In this document: one piece after another, positions 16,640-50,597 of the stretch | Layout of the letters: every line of letters begins with the position of its first letter | Numbering within the stretch: the first letter of the stretch is position 1 | Source of the DNA: Gammaproteobacteria bacterium | Lineage (GTDB): Bacteria > Pseudomonadota > Gammaproteobacteria > Pseudomonadales > Azotimanducaceae | DNA: 64,000 nucleotides | Direction of reading: 5' to 3' | Assembly: GCA_026707945.1 (NCBI GenBank) | Contig: JAPOVV010000025.1 | Location: 50,564 to 114,563 of the forward strand | Notes under the pieces: generated by a model | Seen by the model: only the letters and a program-made list of their open reading frames with translations | Told to the model about the DNA's origin: nothing | The model's database searches: none | Program-made: the position numbers and the translations under genes

Positions 16640-17677
16640 GTGCGCGTCGCCATCGTCGTTTATATATTGCTAGTCGCGTTGGTCGCATTCAACGTCACAC
16701 AGGTGTTTGAACTCCCTGCCTGGATTGCTGCACCCGTAGTGCTAGTAGTCATCGGCGTCATAGCGATTGCCCATTTTGCAGTGGGCTCGTCAAATGTGCT
16801 CTATATGACACTAAGCACTATCAGCGTGATTAGTTTATTAGTTGTTAGCTTCACCGCATCACTACCCGCGTTCGCTGTAATCGACAACGGGAGCGGCTTG
16901 CAGTGGACAAGTAGCTTGATACCTCTATTCGTTTCGGCTATCGGGCTATACGGGGTTGGACTTTGGCTCAGGGCTGCAAGTGCAAGTCAAGCAGACGCAC
17001 TTGACTGGCTCGCAAACTTTCTAAGTGGACCTGGGCTTCTGCTATCACTTTTGACGGCACTCGTGTTAAGTGCAACGACGTTACTCGCACTTGAGTGGTT
17101 GGGCGAAACATGGTCCAGCTCGCAAGCCATCACTCGCCGCTTTCTAGAGCGCGGCATGATCCCACCCGCGACCGTACTGTTCTTTTATTGGGGCATGCTC
17201 ATTCTCGTTGGAAAATGGTGGAATACACTCTATCTTCGTGCTAGTCTCCAACGATGGCAGATCGGGCAAGAGTCGAACATCATCACGCATATTGATCGCA
17301 TCCGCGTGTTGTCCGACGATTCCGGCAGACTCGATGATCGACTAGAGTTCCTCTGGCGACGCCACGAGGAATCATTCACCGTACCCCGGTACATCGGGTG
17401 GGTTGTTCCAGTACTTGGCTTCATTGGCACGGTGCTCGGAATTTCCCTAGCCGCTGACGGTATTCGTAAGCTGATCGCTTCCGAATCAGGATTGAGTGGA
17501 CTATCCACGGAACTTGGCGCCGCTATTGCGCCGCTTGGCATTGCGTTCGATACTACTCTGATCGCGCTCTCGCTTAGCGTCCTGTTAATGCTGTCTCTAA
17601 CTCTGGTCCAGCGTAGTGAAGAGCGTGCGCTCAACACGCTAGAGCGACAACTGCGCGAAAGCGTTCGTGCCTTCTAA
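16640..17677 (+). CDS. MotA/TolQ/ExbB-family proton-channel protein with an extended N-terminal polytopic domain (about 8 TM)
   Basis: The C-terminal module PVLGFIGTVLGI...LGIAFDTTLIALSLSVLLM aligns with E. coli ExbB PFVGLFGTVWGI...PGIAEALLATAIGLVAAI. Six additional hydrophobic helices precede it. GTG start. Confidence 0.7.
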   Translation: MRVAIVVYILLVALVAFNVTQVFELPAWIAAPVVLVVIGVIAIAHFAVGSSNVLYMTLSTISVISLLVVSFTASLPAFAVIDNGSGLQWTSSLIPLFVSAIGLYGVGLWLRAASASQADALDWLANFLSGPGLLLSLLTALVLSATTLLALEWLGETWSSSQAITRRFLERGMIPPATVLFFYWGMLILVGKWWNTLYLRASLQRWQIGQESNIITHIDRIRVLSDDSGRLDDRLEFLWRRHEESFTVPRYIGWVVPVLGFIGTVLGISLAADGIRKLIASESGLSGLSTELGAAIAPLGIAFDTTLIALSLSVLLMLSLTLVQRSEERALNTLERQLRESVRAF

Positions 17678-18185
17678 GGAACGTCAGCCAGACGACGAAA
17701 GTAACGCGCCCATGATGGCGGTTTTTGGCGGGATGTTTGCGCTCATGCTGGTATTCCTACTTATCGTCAACATCTTTTCGGAATCGGCGGTTCGCGAACG
17801 CCTGCAAGACACTGCCGACGACGGTCTTTATCGAATTCAGAGCGAAACAGGCGGTTTTGGTTACGTCGTAATCGTGTTTCCGAGCACGCTCCGAATTGTT
17901 GAAACGGGCGAGGGAGTTGCGAGGGAGGAGATTTGCACACCGGGCAGTCCCTACCGTAACTATGCCGAACGAGTCTATCTAGATGGCGAGCAGCAACTGT
18001 TGTTCTTTGTCCTCGAAGGCAGCATTCCGATCATGGCAGAAGCTCGAAATTGCCTTGCGGCAATCTGGCCGGATCGCGAGATCAGGATTGGCTGGGTCAT
18101 TGCAGACAACGAGTTCTTGAAATCAGTGATGCTCGATGACATACCTTCGTATATTCGGGACTATACCGAAACTACAACACCATGA
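17667..18185 (+). CDS. Bitopic inner-membrane protein of ExbD/TolR-like size and topology (no membrane Asp)
   Basis: 172 aa: a charged N-terminus, one TM helix (MMAVFGGMFALMLVFLLIVNIF), then an ~130-aa periplasmic domain. Overlaps the upstream gene by 11 nt if GTG 17667 is used; the alternative start is ATG 17712. Confidence 0.55.
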   Translation: MPSKERQPDDESNAPMMAVFGGMFALMLVFLLIVNIFSESAVRERLQDTADDGLYRIQSETGGFGYVVIVFPSTLRIVETGEGVAREEICTPGSPYRNYAERVYLDGEQQLLFFVLEGSIPIMAEARNCLAAIWPDREIRIGWVIADNEFLKSVMLDDIPSYIRDYTETTTP

Positions 18186-19867
18186 TTTCAGCAGCTCGAC
18201 GCATCCCTAATTTCGCTGGTGTCGCGTTAGTCGACATCCTTGCAAACGGCGTCGCCGTATTGATCATCGTTATCGTGTTGAGCATCGCGAGTCGATTTGA
18301 GCAAGAAAAGGAGTACAGCGAACGGATTCAAGAAGTCTCTGCAGTGATGACGCGTGAATTCAGTACCTCATTGGTATTAAATCGACTCGCGGCAGGTCCG
18401 CCGGCAACTCTCCACGATTACGAGAACTCAGCACTCGATCAGGTTTGGGATCCCGCAATCATGCCAGTCTTGGAAATTCATAAGGACGTCGTGCGTGATC
18501 CTTATTCCGGGCGCGTCTGGCACCGATCTGAGCTTCTGCAAGAACCGAACAGCCTCGATGCTTTTCTCAGTGAATTCGATGCGTTTCAGCGCGAGTCAGT
18601 TCGCGGCGATTTTTACGATATCGGTACCTTTTATTTGTTAATGTCGATCCTTAAGGATCATTCGATCTTGATCACTCATTGGCATTTCGTCGGTGCAATG
18701 GGCATAGGTCAGGAAGCGAGCGTGGCTTCTTGTCCCGCAGGCATGAGTGCAAAGGATTGTGTAGGTCTAGGTGTGAGTGACCAGACGTCGACAATCGCTG
18801 ATGTATACGAGTCACTCACAAATGGAAGTGGCAATGGTGAAAACCAAGGTGACGGCGAATGGCCACCAAGTGAGTCCGAGTGGGATGACATCGGACAGGA
18901 AGGTCGCGCCAGTGCCGATTCCTTGCCGCAGGGCGCGCAACTTGGTCCAGGAGGGAGTGGGGATCTCGATGGAGAAAGCTTTCCCGATGTGCGCGCTTCC
19001 CGTAATCGACAGACAGGGCAAGGTCCGGGCGGTGCGGGAAACGTACCTGGATTCTCTATCCGGCTAGCAGACCCTACCGCCGAACTGGCAAGCCTGGGAT
19101 CAATTAATCTCGCGACGATTCAACAAGACCTTAAGGGCTTTTTAATCTCTTTAATGGCCTTTCTGAGTGAAATTCAGCATTTCTATGACAACGACAACCC
19201 GCCTACCGAGCTGCTTCAACAGTTTATTCCCATCCTACAGACTTTTCTGACCCAACCTCCCACACTTGACGACATCCAATTGGAAGTGGTTGAGGATCTC
19301 GCACTATCCCTCGAATTGCTCCACAATCAAGGTTACGTACACGATCAAGCCGAACCGCTGATTACACATCCCATACCTAGATCGGCACATCCCGAGGCGT
19401 TGATTCGTTTAGCCGTTAATCGCACACTAATCGAGGCTGAAATTCAATCGAATAACGTCGTGCTGTTAGATTCCGTTCCGGAGACCGCAAAGCTTCGATT
19501 CAATCTACAAGCCTATCCGGACATATGGCGAGGTATGCAAATTTCTGCAGAACGTAATGCCGTACTGCTTATGTCGCCCATTCAGTCTGAACCTGACGTC
19601 GCGAAATGGCGTGCAATCGCATATCTCTCCCCACATCTAGATGATTTCGTCGTTGGGTTTGTGTTTGGCGCTTATGACGAAGATGGCCATCTCGAAATCG
19701 TCGCGGAACCCAATCAAGGATTCATCGACACGATGCGACTAATGCCACAATGGGACCGAAGTCCTTTTAGCATCCAGACTTGGATGACAATGCTCTATGT
19801 CTTCGCCGGTCTCTCCCTAATTGCGTTGTTGTTCTTCTGGCGTCCAGGGACGCGATTTAGACGATGA
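18182..19867 (+). CDS. Large membrane protein with an ExbD/TolR-like Asp-containing N-terminal anchor and a C-terminal TM helix
   Basis: ATGA overlap with the upstream stop. N-terminal anchor FAGVALVDILANGVAVLIIVIVL (D18) resembles ExbD TPFIDVMLVLLIIFMV. Acidic/Gly-rich low-complexity segment at about nt 18821-19051. C-terminal helix WMTMLYVFAGLSLIALLFFW followed by basic residues. Confidence 0.6.
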   Translation: MISAARRIPNFAGVALVDILANGVAVLIIVIVLSIASRFEQEKEYSERIQEVSAVMTREFSTSLVLNRLAAGPPATLHDYENSALDQVWDPAIMPVLEIHKDVVRDPYSGRVWHRSELLQEPNSLDAFLSEFDAFQRESVRGDFYDIGTFYLLMSILKDHSILITHWHFVGAMGIGQEASVASCPAGMSAKDCVGLGVSDQTSTIADVYESLTNGSGNGENQGDGEWPPSESEWDDIGQEGRASADSLPQGAQLGPGGSGDLDGESFPDVRASRNRQTGQGPGGAGNVPGFSIRLADPTAELASLGSINLATIQQDLKGFLISLMAFLSEIQHFYDNDNPPTELLQQFIPILQTFLTQPPTLDDIQLEVVEDLALSLELLHNQGYVHDQAEPLITHPIPRSAHPEALIRLAVNRTLIEAEIQSNNVVLLDSVPETAKLRFNLQAYPDIWRGMQISAERNAVLLMSPIQSEPDVAKWRAIAYLSPHLDDFVVGFVFGAYDEDGHLEIVAEPNQGFIDTMRLMPQWDRSPFSIQTWMTMLYVFAGLSLIALLFFWRPGTRFRR

Positions 19868-32361: not shown

Positions 32362-33627
32362 ATGGTCTACACCTTCTACCGAATGATCTCCTCGCTGTTG
32401 CCGTTTATCGCAACCCTGAATCTACTAAGAAGATCTTTGCGTGAACCCGACTACCGATTGCGCATCAAAGAGCGATTTGGATTTGTTCCCTCAACAATTC
32501 AAAAAGGCTCAATCTGGGTACATGCAGTATCTGCGGGTGAAGTAATTGCCGCGGAAATGCTGGTCAATCAGCTACTTGAGAGTTCTAACACGGTTCACAT
32601 CTTGATGACAACGACCACGCCATCCGGTTCTGCTGAAATCTCTAGGCGATTCGGAAATCGAGTCGATCACTGCTACATGCCATATGACGCAAAGCGCTGT
32701 ATCGAGCGATTTCTAAAACACACACATCCGCGAGCGTTGATCCTCATGGAAACAGAACTGTGGCCAAATTTGCTAAGCATCGCACAACGAAATGGCACCA
32801 ACGTGTGTTTAGTTAATGCGCGTTTAAGCGCACGTTCGGCAAAACGCTACGGCCTAGTGCGTTCATTGACCGCTAGCATGCTAGACAGCATCACCATGAT
32901 CGTTTCGCAGTATGAAGACACTGCAGAACGGTTGCGCAATCTAGGCTATCCAAGTGAACGCATACACGTCTCAGGGAACATCAAGTTCGATCTTGTAGTG
33001 TCTGAAGAAACGCTACGCTCTAGCGCGCGATTGCGAGAGAGATGGAGACTTGAACGTCCTTGTTGGCTCGCAGCGAGTACTCATCCTGGAGAGGATGAAA
33101 TCGTGCTCGATGCCCATCTCCGTGCCCGCGCTCGTATCCCCGATCTATTGACCGTCCTAGCACCACGCCACCCTCGCCGAGCCGACGACATCCAAGCAAT
33201 GGCGGACGCAAGGTCCCTAACCTCTGTAAAGCTCTCCGACCCATCTCAATCGGCCGACGTTTTGCTCGTCGATCAGATGGGAGTACTGCTTGAAATGTGC
33301 GGAATGGTGGACGTCGCGTTCATCGGAGGAAGCTTGCAAGGAACGGGCGGCCACAACCCAGTTGAGCCCGCGGTATTCGGTGTCCCAATGCTCATGGGGC
33401 CGGATCGCATGAATTTCGAAGAAGTTTGCAAGCGGTTTACGGATGCTGGATGTTTGACAACGGTCCAGAACTCAGATGAACTCGCTACAGAGTTACTTGC
33501 TTTACTGAACGATCCAGACGAACGTCAACGGCAGGGGGATGCCGCACGCCAAGTCGTTAACGAGAATCGCGGTTCTGCGCAGCAACAATTCAGTTTCGTG
33601 CGCGACTGGTTGAGTGCTACTAGTTAG
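32362..33627 (+). CDS. waaA: 3-deoxy-D-manno-octulosonic acid (Kdo) transferase
   Basis: IWVHAVSAGEV motif and overall colinearity with KdtA/WaaA. ATG 32362 preferred; the TTG at 32356 is also possible. Confidence 0.88.
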   Translation: MVYTFYRMISSLLPFIATLNLLRRSLREPDYRLRIKERFGFVPSTIQKGSIWVHAVSAGEVIAAEMLVNQLLESSNTVHILMTTTTPSGSAEISRRFGNRVDHCYMPYDAKRCIERFLKHTHPRALILMETELWPNLLSIAQRNGTNVCLVNARLSARSAKRYGLVRSLTASMLDSITMIVSQYEDTAERLRNLGYPSERIHVSGNIKFDLVVSEETLRSSARLRERWRLERPCWLAASTHPGEDEIVLDAHLRARARIPDLLTVLAPRHPRRADDIQAMADARSLTSVKLSDPSQSADVLLVDQMGVLLEMCGMVDVAFIGGSLQGTGGHNPVEPAVFGVPMLMGPDRMNFEEVCKRFTDAGCLTTVQNSDELATELLALLNDPDERQRQGDAARQVVNENRGSAQQQFSFVRDWLSATS

Positions 33628-34990
33628 AGGGTTTCCCGCTTGCGCTCGTAATCTTTGTAACCGTGTCGGTCGCGTCGATGTATTGATTGAGCTGTTGAAG
33701 ATCTTCTGCCGATAACGATCCGACGGTTTGCTTCAATCGCAAGCCGTTCAATACGTATGTATAGCGGGAGGTCGCATACGCTAGAACGTTCGAATAGAGA
33801 CGCTGTTGCGCTTGCAGAACTTCTACGATATTACGTGTCCCTACCTCGTACCCAGTTTGGGTCGCTTCCAAAGCTGCTTGGCTCGATTGAATCGATTTGT
33901 AACGAGCGCTCACCCGATCTACGTCTCGTTGCACCAGACGGAATAGATTCCGTGTATCACGTGCAACCGTAAGCTGCGACTGAATGTAGAGTTGCTTCGC
34001 GCGTTCCTGCTGCCAAGCTGACGATCGCGCTTGTGAGAGATTACGACCACCGTTAAACAAAGGCATACTCGCACTTAGACTCACACTCGTAGTCGTCGAC
34101 TGATCTGTGAAGACCGACAAAGGATCCTCACGATAACTCTGTGAGCCCGATATGCGTACCGTTGGTAACAAATAACTCATAGACGCTTGTCTCGACTTCT
34201 TGGCGGCATCCCAGTTCGCTTTTGCAGCTTGGATTTGCGGATTACCCGCCATCGCAGCTCGCACCCACTCCTCTTCATCGATCGGTTGCGGATTCTCGAT
34301 TGGCAGTTCGTCCGTCAACTTACCTAATTCACTGTAATCCACACCTGTGACGGTACGTAATGATTCAAAGAAGATACCATGGTTGCTCCTTGCAGAAAGC
34401 GTCTCAACGACAGCTAAGTCGTAGCTAGCAGTCGCATCGAGCACGTCGGTTATCGCTACCAAACCGACATCGAAACGTTGCTGTACCTGCTCAAGCTGGC
34501 GTTGCACAGCTTCTTCGGCTGCTACGCTTGACTCTAAACTATCTTGAGCTTGCAGAACATCGAGGTAAGCCTGCGCGACGCGAAGCACCAATGTTTGTTC
34601 TGTTGCTATAAGCTCCCAATCGGCAGCTTTGATCTGATCACGAACCGCAAAGAACTGGAATATTGCCTGCGCATTAAAAAGTGCTTGGTTGATGCTGACA
34701 CTCCAACCAGCGTTCTGAGATTTACCTTCCTGAATGAAGATTGGTACTTCTTCATCTTCTGATCCGCGCTTTCTTTCGAAATCGCTTTCACCCCGATTCA
34801 TACTCGCACTTACCGAAGGCAGTAGAAGACTTATGCCCGACCAGAGATTCTCCCCGGAGACTTTGTTCGCAGCGATCGCACCTGCAAGAACTGGATCGTT
34901 CTCTAATGCGTCTCTATACGCTTGTTCCAAGTCGACGGCAAACGCACTACACCCTAAGATCGTTAAGAGACAAGCTAATGACCTTTTCAT
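33620..34990 (-). CDS. tolC: TolC-family outer-membrane efflux/type I secretion duct
   Basis: Signal peptide from ATG 34990 (MKRSLACLLTILGCSAFA). Mature N-terminus VDLEQAYRDAL. Two tandem OEP repeats. Converges on waaA with an 8-nt overlap. Confidence 0.85.
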   Translation of the reverse strand: MKRSLACLLTILGCSAFAVDLEQAYRDALENDPVLAGAIAANKVSGENLWSGISLLLPSVSASMNRGESDFERKRGSEDEEVPIFIQEGKSQNAGWSVSINQALFNAQAIFQFFAVRDQIKAADWELIATEQTLVLRVAQAYLDVLQAQDSLESSVAAEEAVQRQLEQVQQRFDVGLVAITDVLDATASYDLAVVETLSARSNHGIFFESLRTVTGVDYSELGKLTDELPIENPQPIDEEEWVRAAMAGNPQIQAAKANWDAAKKSRQASMSYLLPTVRISGSQSYREDPLSVFTDQSTTTSVSLSASMPLFNGGRNLSQARSSAWQQERAKQLYIQSQLTVARDTRNLFRLVQRDVDRVSARYKSIQSSQAALEATQTGYEVGTRNIVEVLQAQQRLYSNVLAYATSRYTYVLNGLRLKQTVGSLSAEDLQQLNQYIDATDTVTKITSASGKPSN

Positions 34991-35144
34991 GAAAAGAGCG
35001 ACTCCAAATTCGTTGCGGATTGAGTCCAAGACCATCGTGGGTGGATCTAAAAAGACGTAACTATCCCTAGTTACACGAAAATCGACGTCTCAACAGTCGC
35101 AGGAAATCGTTAAAATTCCGAGCCCTTTTCGCGCCCACACCAAC

Positions 35145-35414
35145 ATGGCACGGATTACTGTCGAAGACTGCCTTGAACACGTTGAAAACCGGTTTCAGCT
35201 GGTTACACTGGCAGCCGAGCGCGCCCATCAATTCTATCTTTATAACGCTAGGCCACAAGTAGATCCCGAGAATGACAAGCCGACGGTGATCGCACTGCGC
35301 GAAATAGCCTCAGGGATGACCGTAGGCGGCATTTTGGATGATCTCGCCGAGACGGATACCGAGAGCGAGGCTGATATAGATTCTCCGGATGGCAACGAAT
35401 CGACCGACGAGTAG
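35145..35414 (+). CDS. rpoZ: DNA-directed RNA polymerase subunit omega
   Basis: [29 protein letters not shown] matches the canonical RpoZ N-terminus. Confidence 0.95.
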
Positions 35415-37590
35415 TTCGTACTTTGTCGGTGTTCTTGCCGAACAAGCCCGTTCGGATACACAAGCCGCCCCGTTTGAGCTCTCGGACCTAATCTCCAAAC
35501 TGCGGTACCTTACGCCGCAACAAATTGCCGAAGTCCGTGAAGCATGTAAGTACGCTGAACGCGCGCACGAAGGGCAAACACGAAAGACTGGTCACTCCTA
35601 CATAACCCATCCTCTCGCGGTCGCTGGCATCCTCGCCGAGCTGGAAGCCGACCACGAAACTGTTATGGCAGGCGTCCTTCACGATGTCATTGAAGACTGT
35701 AACGTCACGAAAGAGACGCTCGAGACACGATTCGGCATAAAGGTCGCGAATATTGTTGATGGTGTGACTAAGTTGGCGGAGTTTTCGTCTACTCAAGAGT
35801 TTCACGCAACGAATATTCAGAGTATCGCGCTTGCGACCGTTAAGGATCCTCGTGTGATCGTGGTCAAACTTGCCGACCGACTCCACAACATGCGTACGCT
35901 CGCCGTCGTCGATAAGGACAAGCGGCTTGCCATTGCCACTGAAACACTTGAAATTTATGCCCCGATCGCACAACGCCTCGGTATCTATGTCATCAAGAAC
36001 GAACTTGAAGACCTTGCATTCGCAGCGAAAAACTCATTTCGTTCAGATCACATCACTTATGCGGTAGAGAGATTCGAAAAAGCTAACGAAGACAACATCC
36101 GCGTCGTTCAGAGCCGCATTCAAGCCCATTTCAATGAGATTGGCTTGGATGCTTCGATTAACTACCACTCGCCTCATCTTTATGCGATCTATCACAAGAT
36201 GAAGCACGGACCGATGACGTTTGACGAAGCGATGACATTCCTGAATTTCCGTGTGCTCACGCACAGCACGGAAGACTGTTATCGAGCGCTCGGCGCAGTC
36301 CACCAGGTCTTCAAACCAAATACACGAGGATTTCACGACTATATCGCCGCTCGGAAACACAACGGATACCAGTCCCTTCACACGCAGGTGATTGGTCCTC
36401 GTGGCAAACTGACGAAGATTCAAATTCGCACGCTTCAGATGGAGGAGTTCGCGAACCGCGGCATCACAACCATCCATCCCAACGCGATGGACACAAGTGT
36501 TGAGGGTTTGAACGAAGCGCTAATGAAGTCGTTCGCCGACACCATCGAAGACATTCAAGACCATGCCGACAATGCGATCGACTTTGTCGCAAAATTCAAA
36601 CACGATCTAGTACGCGATCGCATCTTGGTGTACACGCCAGATGGTGATGTCATCCATCTGCCAATTGGCGCAACAGTCATAGATTTCGCATACGCGATTA
36701 GTACGACGCTAGGCGCTCAATGCACTGGCAGTTTTGTCGACAATCAGCCAGCTCCGCTGTCCACCCTGCTCGAAACTGGACAAACGGTCGACGTGCAGAC
36801 CGAAAACAGCTCGATGCCAAGTCCAGCTTGGCTTGACTACGCTGTTACGCCGCGCGCACGAAATGCCATCAAAAGGCAACTCGACCGCAGCAGTCACTCA
36901 CTCGCGCTGAAGACCGGACAGCGCTTGCTTGACGCCGCGCTAGCACAAGCAGGAATAACGCTTGAAGACCTCGACTTCCGAAGCCATCGAAAGGTCTACA
37001 AGGATTTAAATGTCAAGCATCGCAACGAATTGCTACTGGCCGTAGGTCGCGGTCAGTTACAACCTCGATTTGCTGCAATGAAACTACTCTCGTCCGTTAA
37101 AGACGAGACCCCGAGTATTTACCTCGAAGATGGTCATTCAACGGTCAATATTGTTAATCAAAAACTAAACGCCACATTTGCGAATTGCTGTGGACCTGTC
37201 CCCGGAGACCAGATCGTCGGGCATGGAACCAGCCAGAAAGGCTTCGTTGTACATCGTCGTGCGTGTGCGACAGCGAAAAGTGACAAAAAGGCCGATCGTG
37301 TGCCTCTAACGTGGGGCGACACCAACAATGAGGAATTCTCGACCGGGTTGATGATCTGGGTGACGGGCGAAAAAGATTCGATCTACAAACTCGCAAGTGC
37401 GCTGAGGCTCGCAGATGCGAGTTTGATGCGCCTCGACACGCCCCCGGAACAAGGGATCACCAACGCCGTTCGCGTCGAGATCAAAGTCCGTAACTCCGAC
37501 CATCTAAAACGCGTTTCAAGCAATCTAAGGCGTTCACACTTTGTTGCGAAAGTGCAGCGCGTCGGCGACCGCGCCGAAACTGAGGAGTAG
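35389..37590 (+). CDS. spoT: RelA/SpoT-homologue, SpoT-type (HD hydrolase intact; synthetase motifs substituted)
   Basis: HD domain ([31 protein letters not shown]). Synthetase-like domain, TGS domain ([25 protein letters not shown]) and ACT-like C-terminus. Gapless alignment to E. coli SpoT. The start at 35389 overlaps rpoZ by 26 nt and is somewhat uncertain. Confidence 0.9.
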
Positions 37591-37593
37591 ACC

Positions 37594-37977
37594 ATGCAGT
37601 CTTACGCCATCGACTCGAAGCATGCGCCAGAGCCGATTGGACCTTACTCACATATGGTTCGCGTCGGCGATATGCTATACCTCTCTGGTCAGATTGCACT
37701 TAATCCTGACACGATGGAACTCAATGCCGCCAGCACTGAGACGGAAGTAAGGCAAGTTTTTAAGAACATCGAAGCGGTCTTAAAGGCAGGAGGCGCCGAC
37801 CTCAACAACATCGTCAAACTTACCGTCTTTATCACGGACCTAGATCGTTTCAACAGTGTGAACGTTGTCATGAGCGAACTGTTGTCGCCTCCGTATCCCG
37901 CCCGTTCTACTGTCCAAGTGGCGGCATTACCTCGAAATGCGACTGTCGAAGTCGAGGCCATCGCCGTCGCAAAATAA
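37594..37977 (+). CDS. ridA: RidA/YjgF-family reactive enamine/imine deaminase
   Basis: APEPIGPYSH...GQI...FKN..AVL.A.G..L..IVK.TVF..D...F..VN and PARSTVQVAALP match the RidA family signature. Confidence 0.9.
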   Translation: MQSYAIDSKHAPEPIGPYSHMVRVGDMLYLSGQIALNPDTMELNAASTETEVRQVFKNIEAVLKAGGADLNNIVKLTVFITDLDRFNSVNVVMSELLSPPYPARSTVQVAALPRNATVEVEAIAVAK

Positions 37978-37986
37978 CGCGAATCT

Positions 37987-39987
37987 GTGCCGTCCAATTT
38001 AGTCACGTCGATCTCCGGCGTTGGACCGCAAGCCGCCGAACGTCTTCATCACCTTAACATCAGGACGGTCGCGGACCTTCTCCTCCATATGCCGCGCGAC
38101 TATCAAGATCGCACGCGACGAACTTTCCTAAGAGATCTCAGCGACGAAGAGTGCGTTGTTCAAGGCACCATCGTTGAGGTCGCAGAGTCTTACAAGAATC
38201 AACGTGGTATGCAGGTGTTCTTTGAGGACGAAACCGGTCGGGGAACCTTGCGTCTACTGCACTACGGTTCCTATCAACGGAACTTATTTCGAATTGGTTC
38301 GTGGCTGTACGTTTACGGCAAGCCTGCATATGGCAAGACGTTTATTCACCCTCAATATCGAGTGTTTCATGAGGACCCAGGCGAACCAGCTTCCGAGTTT
38401 CGACCTGTTTACCCGGCGACGGCGAGTATCAGTAGCGCCAGACTCGGCGCGTGGATTGTCCAGGCGATACCCGAAACGGCGTTTTTTCCGAAGTTCAAGT
38501 ATGACGAACTGACATTAGAGGAAGCGGTTCGAGAGGTCCATCAACCTACCCCAACCAGCTATCCCGATTCAATGCACGGGGCATTCCGACGCGTAGTCTT
38601 CGACGAAATGCTCGCGTTTACACTCGTCCAACGCCGTCAACGTCAGCATAAGAACCATGAAACCGACCCTTTACCTTCTATCGCGGGACTGGAACAAAAG
38701 TTGCTTCACGATCTGGGGTTTGCACTGACCTCCGCACAAGAGCGCGTTGCCGGGGAAGTTCTAGACGATCTTTCGAAACCCATTGCTATGCGACGTTTGA
38801 TCCAGGGAGACGTGGGCTCTGGTAAGACCGTCGTGGCGGCTCTTGCCGCTATTCGAGCTGCGGAGAACGAGACCCAAACCGCGATCATGGCACCTACCGA
38901 ATTGCTCGCCGAGCAACACTTCCAGGTATTTACCGAATGGCTCACGCCACTTGGAATCGAAGTTGGCTTACTCACCAGTCGCATGGCAACACGACAGCGC
39001 CGAAGCCAACAAGACGCAATCACAAACGGTCATGCCCAGGTGGTCGTCGGAACTCACGCGTTATTTCAGGAAAAGACGATCTTCAAGCGTCTAGCCTTGT
39101 CAATCATTGATGAGCAACATCGGTTCGGTGTGCATCAACGTATGCAAATGACTGGGAAGGGTGAGAATGCTCATCAGCTCGTGCTTACTGCTACGCCTAT
39201 ACCGAGAACCCTCGCACTGACTATGTTTGGTGATCTGGCGGTCTCGACTATTGACGAGCTACCCCCGGGTCGAACCCCGATCAGAACAACTATCCATGCC
39301 AACGAACGCCGGGAAGATGTCGTTGAAGCAGTCGAGCAGCAACTTAGAAACGGGCAGCAGGTTTACTGGGTATGCGTCGCGATCGACGAGAACGAAGAAA
39401 CCACTCTATCCGCAAGCACGACGACATTCGAACAACTCAAGGAACGATTCACCAATATTGGCGTCGGACACGTCAATGGCCGCATGAGGGTCGATGAAAA
39501 GAATCAAGTCATGACTGCTTTTCGCGAAGGGGAAATTAGACTGTTAGTTGCTACAACTGTGATTGAAGTCGGCATAGACGTCGCAAACGCCACCGTTATG
39601 GTGATTGAGAACGCCGAACGACTAGGCTTGGCGCAGTTGCATCAGTTGCGCGGTCGGGTTGGACGCGGCGGTGAACAAAGTTACTGCCTTCTACTCTATC
39701 AAACTCCTCTTACCGGATCCTCAAGAGAACGACTTGAGGCGATGCGACGTTCGACCGATGGGTTCGAGCTCGCTGAGGTTGACCTAAAGACAAGAGGCAT
39801 GGGACAGATGTTCGGCAATCGCCAATCGGGCGTTGATCCGTTCCGAGTTGCCAGTCTTTCGTCTTTCGTCGAGCGTTACGAGGAATTAGGTTCGGTCTCG
39901 GAAAACCTGTTAAGAGACCATCCATCACTCGCAGATGAAATCATCGCAACCTGGACCCCAGAAGGGCAGGGATATGCGGCAACTTAG
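37987..39987 (+). CDS. recG: ATP-dependent DNA helicase RecG
   Basis: Wedge-domain N-terminus. Walker A GDVGSGKT. DEQH box (IIDEQHRFG). Motif VI QLHQLRGRVGRG. GTG start. Confidence 0.93.
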   Translation: MPSNLVTSISGVGPQAAERLHHLNIRTVADLLLHMPRDYQDRTRRTFLRDLSDEECVVQGTIVEVAESYKNQRGMQVFFEDETGRGTLRLLHYGSYQRNLFRIGSWLYVYGKPAYGKTFIHPQYRVFHEDPGEPASEFRPVYPATASISSARLGAWIVQAIPETAFFPKFKYDELTLEEAVREVHQPTPTSYPDSMHGAFRRVVFDEMLAFTLVQRRQRQHKNHETDPLPSIAGLEQKLLHDLGFALTSAQERVAGEVLDDLSKPIAMRRLIQGDVGSGKTVVAALAAIRAAENETQTAIMAPTELLAEQHFQVFTEWLTPLGIEVGLLTSRMATRQRRSQQDAITNGHAQVVVGTHALFQEKTIFKRLALSIIDEQHRFGVHQRMQMTGKGENAHQLVLTATPIPRTLALTMFGDLAVSTIDELPPGRTPIRTTIHANERREDVVEAVEQQLRNGQQVYWVCVAIDENEETTLSASTTTFEQLKERFTNIGVGHVNGRMRVDEKNQVMTAFREGEIRLLVATTVIEVGIDVANATVMVIENAERLGLAQLHQLRGRVGRGGEQSYCLLLYQTPLTGSSRERLEAMRRSTDGFELAEVDLKTRGMGQMFGNRQSGVDPFRVASLSSFVERYEELGSVSENLLRDHPSLADEIIATWTPEGQGYAAT

Positions 39988-50559: not shown

Positions 50560-50597
50560 GGTTTGATCAGATGTTATTAGGGTGAACTGGCAAGCGG

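Follow-up and report, generated by a model that had tools for sequence, protein, structure and literature searches.

A probable hydrolase-only SpoT with a conserved pseudo-synthetase domain in a marine lineage of Candidatus Azotimanducaceae

The 64,000-nucleotide stretch of DNA analysed here (the window: positions 50,564 to 114,563 of contig JAPOVV010000025.1 in the gammaproteobacterial assembly GCA_026707945.1) carries a spoT gene whose product, a long RelA/SpoT homologue (RSH) of 733 residues, is in our assessment very probably a hydrolase-only enzyme of the SpoT[Hs] type with a conserved pseudo-synthetase domain. Briefly, we favor the following account of its biochemistry and history. The HD domain is catalytically complete by sequence and should degrade the alarmone (p)ppGpp. 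The adjoining RelA_SpoT (synthetase) domain would keep its fold but be unable to transfer pyrophosphate, because the residues at its active site are changed: Thr283 and Lys343 stand at the positions of D264 and E323, His260 and Pro262 at those of R241 and K243, and G-x-H at that of R-x-K (RelSeq numbering, here and below). By analogy with the SpoT of Acinetobacter baumannii, the domain would be retained as a non-catalytic module that probably modulates the hydrolase by packing on the HD domain, the Core and the C-terminal domains. That would leave RelA, with its intact synthetase site, to make the alarmone. The loss would have occurred once, near the base of one genus within Candidatus Azotimanducaceae, independently of that in the Moraxellaceae.

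The synthetase active site is replaced and the hydrolase active site kept

BLASTP aligns the window SpoT with that of E. coli K-12 at 36% identity over 689 residues, and the alignment runs without a gap from query residue 158 to about 517, thereby spanning the whole synthetase-site region, much as the initial annotation of the window had described it. HMMER alignments to solved structures, namely the Rel proteins of M. tuberculosis, B. subtilis and S. aureus, A. baumannii SpoT and RelSeq (1vj7), agree. For E323 we take the Glu of the EIQIRT motif, counting from RelSeq Y308 in the numbering of Hogg 2004. On this basis six functional positions of the synthetase site have changed: R241 and K243 of the G-loop GREKH (now YHSPH) are His260 and Pro262; D264, which corresponds to D259 in the IMDIYAFR motif of E. 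coli SpoT, is Thr283; R295 and K297 of the R-x-K-D motif are Gly314 and His316 (GRVKD has become RGFHD); and E323, E319 in the VEVQIRT of E. coli SpoT, is Lys343 (TKIQIRT). In RSH enzymology, D264 together with E323/Q325 binds Mg2+ and activates the acceptor 3'-OH, while R241 and K243 bind the phosphate groups of ATP (PMC9974481). Several other equivalents are retained: Q325 as Q345, R269 (the adenine-stacking Arg), K251, D298, K304, N306, Y308, H312 and R327.

The significance of these changes becomes apparent in an alignment of 105 SpoTs comprising 10 clusters of the window lineage, which are 73–97% identical to the window protein, and 95 other gammaproteobacterial SpoTs, which are 36–41% identical to it. 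The equivalents of R241, K243, D264, K297 and E323 are each invariant in 95/95 of the latter, and that of R295 is conserved in 92/95. Within the lineage clusters, the R241 position is variable (H, R, Y or L), K243 is P in nine and Q in one, and D264 is T in eight and A in two, while Gly314, His316 and Lys343 are fixed in 10/10. Consistent with a degenerate domain, the PF04607 match of the window SpoT scores 87.5–89.6 bits as against 137.7 for the RelA of the same genome and 147.9–155.3 for the top scorers of the order among the matches listed. On the hydrolase side, all the listed motif residues except L165 (H98, D99, E102, D103, D163, R164, H166 and N167, with DRLHN at 163–167) are invariant across the 105 aligned SpoTs. 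Thus, the HD catalytic residues expected of SpoT[Hs] are conserved and the Mg2+/3'-OH residues D264 and E323 lost, and a bifunctional SpoT[HS] would be expected to show R, K, D, K and E where the window protein reads H, P, T, H and K.

The initial annotation had noticed much of this, and its observation as a whole is partly confirmed. It had correctly reported the altered G-loop, the Asp-to-Thr change with its exact codon and the altered RVKD motif, as well as the conserved hydrolase motifs; three of its four tabulated elements were thus right, coordinates included, and one was mis-assigned. It had placed the catalytic Glu at Asn356, which in fact aligns with the variable E332 of E. coli SpoT (MAEMG); that the Glu has been lost holds, although the residue in its place is Lys343 and not Asn. 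The alignments to RelSeq, to the solved Rel, RelA and SpoT structures and to E. coli SpoT, of the kind that it had proposed as a check, restore neither Asp nor Glu at the catalytic positions. Residue 356 is a surface position that varies naturally: 62 of the 95 other SpoTs have D there and 29 have N, while S and E occur in 2 each; hence, it is uninformative on activity and unusable as a marker of it. In most sampled Pseudomonadales SpoTs this residue is Asn or Asp (MANNGIAAHW). The suggestion of a hydrolase-only SpoT drawn from these observations agrees with every in silico test that we ran, the HD site being intact and the two acidic residues and the G-loop gone.

It may be asked whether the protein is instead a bifunctional SpoT with a weak synthetase that works through non-canonical catalytic residues. 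The retained synthetase fold and the equivalents of R269, K251, K304, N306, Y308, H312, Q325 and R327 would suit such an enzyme, as would the strong purifying selection on the domain (see below), and even E. coli SpoT has only weak synthetase activity (PMC6085430). Yet both Mg2+-binding catalytic acids are replaced, one by Thr and the other by Lys with a reversal of charge; the phosphate-binding R241 and K243 are gone; the replaced residues, R295 apart, are those invariant in 95/95 other SpoTs; and the five different D264 replacements found within the genus argue that there is no selection for catalysis there. Further, the single substitution E319Q suffices to abolish synthesis by E. coli SpoT, that allele having a dead synthetase and an intact hydrolase (PMC6085430). 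We hence consider a weakly bifunctional enzyme improbable.

Purifying selection and the predicted fold

Ratios of non-synonymous to synonymous substitution rates (dN/dS) were computed by the Nei–Gojobori method for the closest pairs, which are themselves near saturation (dS 1.2–1.8); distant pairs are saturated, with dS undefined. The synthetase domain (residues 216–365) shows a dN/dS of 0.009–0.011 (4 non-synonymous against 60 synonymous changes in one pair and 7 against 66 in another), which is as low as that of the HD domain (0.006–0.023); the C-terminal half shows 0.026–0.032. Two stretches of the SpoT protein, 14 and 10 residues long, are nearly unchanged over the ten lineage clusters. 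The domain that has lost its catalytic residues is therefore under strong purifying selection and is kept for some function.

These values also bear on the more trivial explanation that the substitutions are an artefact, be it a decaying pseudogene, a mis-assembly or sequencing error in a metagenome-assembled genome (MAG). The source is indeed a fragmented MAG of 117 contigs, with 96% completeness. However, the reading frame is uninterrupted; the same residues recur in independent assemblies, including the closed chromosomes OZ244815.1 and OZ220466.1, and in 10 protein clusters; and a dN/dS of 0.006–0.03 in every domain rules out a pseudogene. The recurrence in independent assemblies and the signature of selection together refute this explanation, to which we assign a negligible probability.

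An AlphaFold2 model of the window SpoT, built from the 105 sequences, has a mean pLDDT of 79.8, with 10-residue block means of 62–94 across residues 251–360. Its N-terminal half superposes on the N-terminal domains of S. aureus Rel (7OIW) with a TM-score of 0.93 and a root-mean-square deviation of 1.9 Å. The N-terminal catalytic half is thus predicted to keep the fold of the solved Rel catalytic fragments. The best full-length Foldseek match by E-value is A. baumannii SpoT (7QPR), at a global TM-score of only 0.39–0.42.

Distribution within the genus and a probable convergent origin of the loss

The records of the relatives are uncultured marine MAGs labelled Pseudomonadales, Gammaproteobacteria or 'Candidatus Azotimanducaceae', and the names of several bins are suggestive of sponge metagenomes. 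We tabulated nine synthetase-site positions in 70 SpoTs drawn from species of the same GTDB genus, the other genera of the family, six other families of the order and E. coli. R241, K243, R295 and E323 are gone in 23 of the 24 sampled species of the genus, the E323 position being K in 21 species and N in 2. Fourteen species retain the Asp of D264, and five different replacements are seen otherwise: T and A in the subclade of the window and, outside it, N, G and K in one species each. The Q325 position is Q in the window subclade and L in the other two subclades of the genus; these sister subclades also carry other replacements (V/L, T/P and A/S/E), and their types with Asp at D264 include YVETE and YLKPE. 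Outside the genus, the five core residues (R241, K243, D264, K297 and E323) are kept in 38 of the 39 other genera of the family, in the six other families and in E. coli; in the exception, R stands in place of K243 and D in place of E323, both conservative substitutions, and R295 is S in one family genus and Q in two other families among those that keep the core residues.

In a maximum-likelihood SpoT tree, 23 of the 24 members of the genus form one clade (SH-aLRT 93) nested within the SpoTs of the family. The stem leading to the window subclade measures 1.15 substitutions per site, as against a median terminal branch of 0.21. Replacement of D264 in five different ways is what would be expected of decay after function had already been lost. 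The distribution fits a single loss of synthesis close to the base of the genus, followed by independent decay of the catalytic residues that were left. The divergence of SpoT is not clearly exceptional relative to its neighbors: between the subclade and the rest of the genus, RecG (N-terminal 370 residues) is 45–52% and RidA 50–62% identical, so that the 42% identity of SpoT within the genus partly reflects a lineage that is deep or fast-evolving overall.

The SpoT of the 24th genus member (G020) retains D264 and E323 and does not group with the genus clade. Contig C7 of this genome carries two spoT copies with equal match scores, inverted relative to each other (17139–19292 on the plus strand and 109710–111863 on the minus strand), which might reflect an inverted duplication, an assembly error or mis-binning (contamination 4%).

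As the initial annotation had noted of Acinetobacter, monofunctional SpoT[Hs] is known from the Moraxellaceae (PMC3153485, PMC9974481). The window protein does not belong to that clade: it comes from another family of the Pseudomonadales, has different substitutions and is 27% identical to 7QPR. As the loss is nested within Ca. Azotimanducaceae, involves a different set of substitutions and occurs in a protein closer to canonical SpoTs (36–42% identity) than to that of A. baumannii, it looks like a second, convergent origin of SpoT[Hs]. The tree was built without Moraxellaceae sequences; a joint tree would risk long-branch attraction, because the Moraxellaceae SpoTs do not group with those of other Gammaproteobacteria (PMC3153485).

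A further alternative is that the former synthetase domain has acquired a new catalytic activity or substrate. The long stem branch followed by strong constraint would be in keeping with such a shift, and so would the invariance of G314, H316 and K343 across all ten clusters. Yet we see no new grouping of acidic or metal-binding residues, and the replacements differ in the sister subclades (V/L, T/P, A/S/E and Q325 to L), so that there is no common new active site. Moreover, the pseudo-synthetase domain of A. baumannii SpoT is non-catalytic and regulatory (PMC9974481). We accordingly deem a new activity of the domain very unlikely.

Other (p)ppGpp synthetases in the genome and its relatives

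If SpoT cannot synthesize (p)ppGpp, then the task must fall to other proteins, and the initial annotation had pointed to RelA or small synthetases encoded elsewhere and proposed a genome search for them. That search bears it out: the source genome has three RelA_SpoT-domain genes, encoding the SpoT, a RelA and a small RSH, the latter two outside the window. The RelA (675 residues; contig C37, L001:685-2712) combines a degenerate HD domain with an intact synthetase site (GRAKNIYGIY, DVLAIRV, EFDDY and EVQIRT). A RelA[hS] with a competent site thus coexists with SpoT, as is characteristic of SpoT[Hs] genomes, and RelA is present in 5/5 sister genomes checked. In each of these five, among them one assembly of a single contig and one of two contigs, the RelA_SpoT domain is matched by just two proteins, RelA (135–140 bits) and SpoT (82–89 bits).

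The small RSH (L003:1267-1941, 62.9 bits) lies on the short contig C20 and runs off its end. Its motifs look canonical (D, RxKD and EVQIRT), and it is directly 3' of a DGQHR/DndB-like gene (L003:59-1276). The RelA_SpoT-domain search did not find it in the five sister genomes; it is an accessory, strain-specific gene, possibly a small alarmone synthetase of a defense-island or toxin type.

The RelA itself shows an unusual architecture. It lacks the whole zinc-finger/RIS domain, with a 68-residue gap relative to E. coli RelA over CCQPIPGD...H...C and a second gap of 19 residues just upstream. The zinc-finger motif (ZFD) is likewise missing from nine RelA homologues in seven genera of the family, and the open-frame lengths of the family's RelAs fall into two groups, about 650–700 and about 740–760 residues. 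The ZFD touches the ribosome in solved RelA–ribosome complexes; therefore, the activation of a RelA without it may differ.

In twelve genomes of the same family (G042, G050, G051, G056, G060, G063, G068, G082, G089, G097, G102 and G104), no match to RelA was found at E <= 1e-80. The twelve represent nine genera, one of which also has a genome with a RelA match; among them are both closed genomes of the sister genus to that of the window in the SpoT tree. These genomes may be without RelA or have a very divergent one. The order-wide PF04607 screen for degenerate SpoTs covered 201 genomes and their best 150 matches, with low scorers outside the matches listed. In a further family of the order (f43), five genomes (G210, G254, G294, G328 and G358; 1.8–2.6 Mb, 96–99% complete) each have a single PF04607 match (L169–L173), a canonical SpoT-like RSH of about 490 bits, and lack RelA; here the RelA/SpoT pair has been simplified in the opposite direction.

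Weighing the hydrolase-only reading

Certain observations pull against a hydrolase-only SpoT with a regulatory pseudo-domain, and they are best considered together: (i) the domain is less degenerate than that of A. baumannii SpoT, retaining as it does the equivalents of R269, K251, D298, K304, N306, Y308, H312, Q325 and R327, and with these substrate contacts in place, substrate binding and even a residual or altered reaction are possible; (ii) the invariance of the replacements G314, H316 and K343 could point to a gain of function instead of a mere loss; (iii) the compact tau-state arrangement of 7QPR is not reproduced by the AlphaFold2 model, the global TM-score being about 0.4, so that regulatory packing is proposed by analogy only; (iv) given a fragmented MAG with a third RelA_SpoT-domain gene, RelA may not be the sole synthetase in the source strain. 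The first two are tempered by the combined loss of both catalytic acids and the phosphate-binding residues and by the differences between subclades, and we continue to infer an absent synthetase, an active hydrolase and a regulatory pseudo-domain as the account that best fits the residues at the two sites.

A more elaborate scenario can be offered tentatively, as a possibility that we would not favor as it stands. With R269, K304, N306, Y308, H312 and Q325 retained, the window SpoT may still bind a guanine nucleotide. The second, convergent route to SpoT[Hs] would then have left a dead domain that keeps its guanine-nucleotide pocket, has the new residues G314, H316 and K343 fixed, senses GDP, GTP or (p)ppGpp and gates the hydrolase; the genus would present a series of intermediates in which the G-loop and the Glu were lost first and the Asp later, several times; and, with the loss of the RelA zinc finger, the stringent response as a whole would have been broadly rewired.

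Gene, domains and neighborhood

The coordinates of the spoT locus are collected in Table 1. Membership in the long RSHs is clear from a TIGR00691 score of 576.3 bits against a cut-off of 499.2, and the protein is a SpoT rather than a RelA by its scores against NF008303 (SpoT, 549 bits) and NF008124 (RelA, 302 bits). This identity also fits the intact HD domain, the rpoZ gene adjoining 5', the presence of a RelA paralogue in the genome and the nesting among the SpoTs of the family. The score of 549 bits does not reach the 947-bit threshold of NF008303 as the equivalog for bifunctional SpoT[HS]. The gene order rpoZ-spoT-ridA-recG is the classic context, the order in E. coli being gmk-rpoZ-spoT-trmH-recG, and the 3' end of rpoZ overlaps the start of spoT by 26 nucleotides. 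Within the zinc-finger motif of SpoT, C600, C601, P603, P605, G606, D607, H622 and C626 are invariant in the 105-sequence alignment.

At its N-terminus (residues 1–38, window 35389–35500), SpoT has an extension of about 30 residues ahead of the HD domain, which is kept across the lineage and predicted with low confidence to form a helix. Many genera of the family match from residues 4–9; the remaining genera, the other families and E. coli match from about residue 20 or later.

Table 1. Features of the spoT locus, in window coordinates (residue equivalents in RelSeq numbering; EcSpoT, E. coli SpoT)
Feature	Position	Strand	Basis
TolC-like outer-membrane channel reading frame, 471 aa, divergent from rpoZ-spoT	33620..35035	-	assigned by reading the sequence
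rpoZ (RNA polymerase omega, 89 aa)	35145..35414	+	PF01192 match at G000:C117:85729-85878 (window 35166-35315); open reading frame listing
spoT, 733-aa long RSH: HD, pseudo-SYNTH, TGS, AH/RIS (zinc finger), ACT/RRM	35389..37590	+	uninterrupted reading frame of 733 codons
HD hydrolase domain, residues 52-199	35542..35985	+	Pfam HD_4, E = 8e-46
Degenerate G-loop YHSPH (canonical GREKH), with His260 (R241) and Pro262 (K243)	36163..36177	+	alignments
Putative pseudo-synthetase (RelA_SpoT) domain, residues 263-360	36175..36468	+	PF04607, 87.5-89.6 bits
Thr283 codon, at catalytic Mg2+-binding Asp position (D264; EcSpoT D259)	36235..36237	+	alignments
G314-F315-H316, at R-x-K of the RxKD motif (R295, K297)	36328..36336	+	alignments
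Gly314 codon (R295)	36328..36330	+	alignments
His316 codon (K297)	36334..36336	+	alignments
Retained acceptor-nucleotide motif K323-H-N-G-Y327-Q-S-L-H331 (K304, N306, Y308, H312)	36355..36381	+	alignments
Lys343 codon, at catalytic Glu of EIQIRT (E323; EcSpoT E319)	36415..36417	+	alignments
Asn356 codon, naturally variable, non-diagnostic site	36454..36456	+	alignments
TGS domain, residues 413-469	36625..36795	+	Pfam PF02824, E = 2e-16
Zinc-finger (ZFD/RIS) motif CCGPVPGD...H...C, residues 600-626	37186..37266	+	PF19296 match
ACT/RRM domain, residues 647-724	37327..37560	+	Pfam PF13291 (ACT_4)
ridA (Rid-family deaminase), 3' of spoT	37594..37977	+	TIGR00004, 156 bits
recG-like helicase gene, 3' of ridA	37987..39987	+	synteny with E. 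coli spoT-trmH-recG; helicase motifs read by eye

Significance

A full division of labor, with RelA making the alarmone and SpoT destroying it, has so far been described only for the Moraxellaceae, where it serves as a model of how conformational constraint tunes long RSHs. A separate origin in a second family would show that this outcome is repeatable. The window lineage further offers a less degraded pseudo-synthetase that keeps its acceptor pocket, together with graded intermediates within one genus; both would help to tell residues needed for catalysis from those through which the hydrolase is allosterically controlled. Among the long RSHs of these uncultured marine bacteria, RelA alone would be able to synthesize (p)ppGpp. 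There is also a practical side to this. Public databases often name SpoTs 'bifunctional GTP diphosphokinase / pyrophosphohydrolase', as we saw for several other SpoTs; none of the ten lineage clusters bears a source name, and the bifunctional name, if applied to these SpoTs, would probably be wrong for the synthetase half.

Comparison with known systems

The closest known parallel is the SpoT of A. baumannii (SpoTAb; PDB 7QPR/7QPS), a representative of the SpoT[Hs] described only in the Moraxellaceae (PMC3153485, Atkinson 2011; PMC9974481, Tamman 2022). Both proteins are long RSHs with an intact HD domain, a retained dead pseudo-synthetase domain, at least as judged from its residues in the window protein, and a full TGS-helical-ZFD-RRM tail; both coexist with a synthetase-only RelA; and D264 has been lost in both. 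In SpoTAb, the loss of the Asp equivalent to D264 goes with a synthetase that is inactive by experiment, and the adenine-stacking Arg, the guanine-stacking Tyr and Q325 are lost as well, GDP binding being absent by isothermal titration calorimetry (PMC9974481). In contrast, the window SpoT keeps all of these residues and has lost E323 (Lys) instead of Q325; likewise, the equivalents of Y308, K304, N306 and H312 are kept in the window protein and changed in SpoTAb. The two are also distant in sequence, with the window protein 27% identical to SpoTAb as opposed to 36–42% to canonical SpoTs.

The bifunctional SpoT[HS] of E. coli and most Gammaproteobacteria (NF008303) shares with the window SpoT its domain architecture, the rpoZ-spoT...recG neighborhood and identical HD motifs; it differs in that the equivalents of R241, K243, D264, R295, K297 and E323 are all replaced in the window protein. 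The E. coli spoT E319Q allele resembles the latter in bearing a change at the same catalytic Glu, but it is an engineered single substitution, whereas the change in the window lineage is natural, reverses the charge from Glu to Lys and is accompanied by at least five other changes in the active site. Finally, RelA[hS] with its pseudo-HD domain presents a mirror image: in each, one of the two catalytic domains would have been inactivated and kept as a regulatory module of the long RSH after the duplication of Rel, although in RelA it is the hydrolase that is dead and the synthetase alive, while in the window SpoT the reverse appears to hold.

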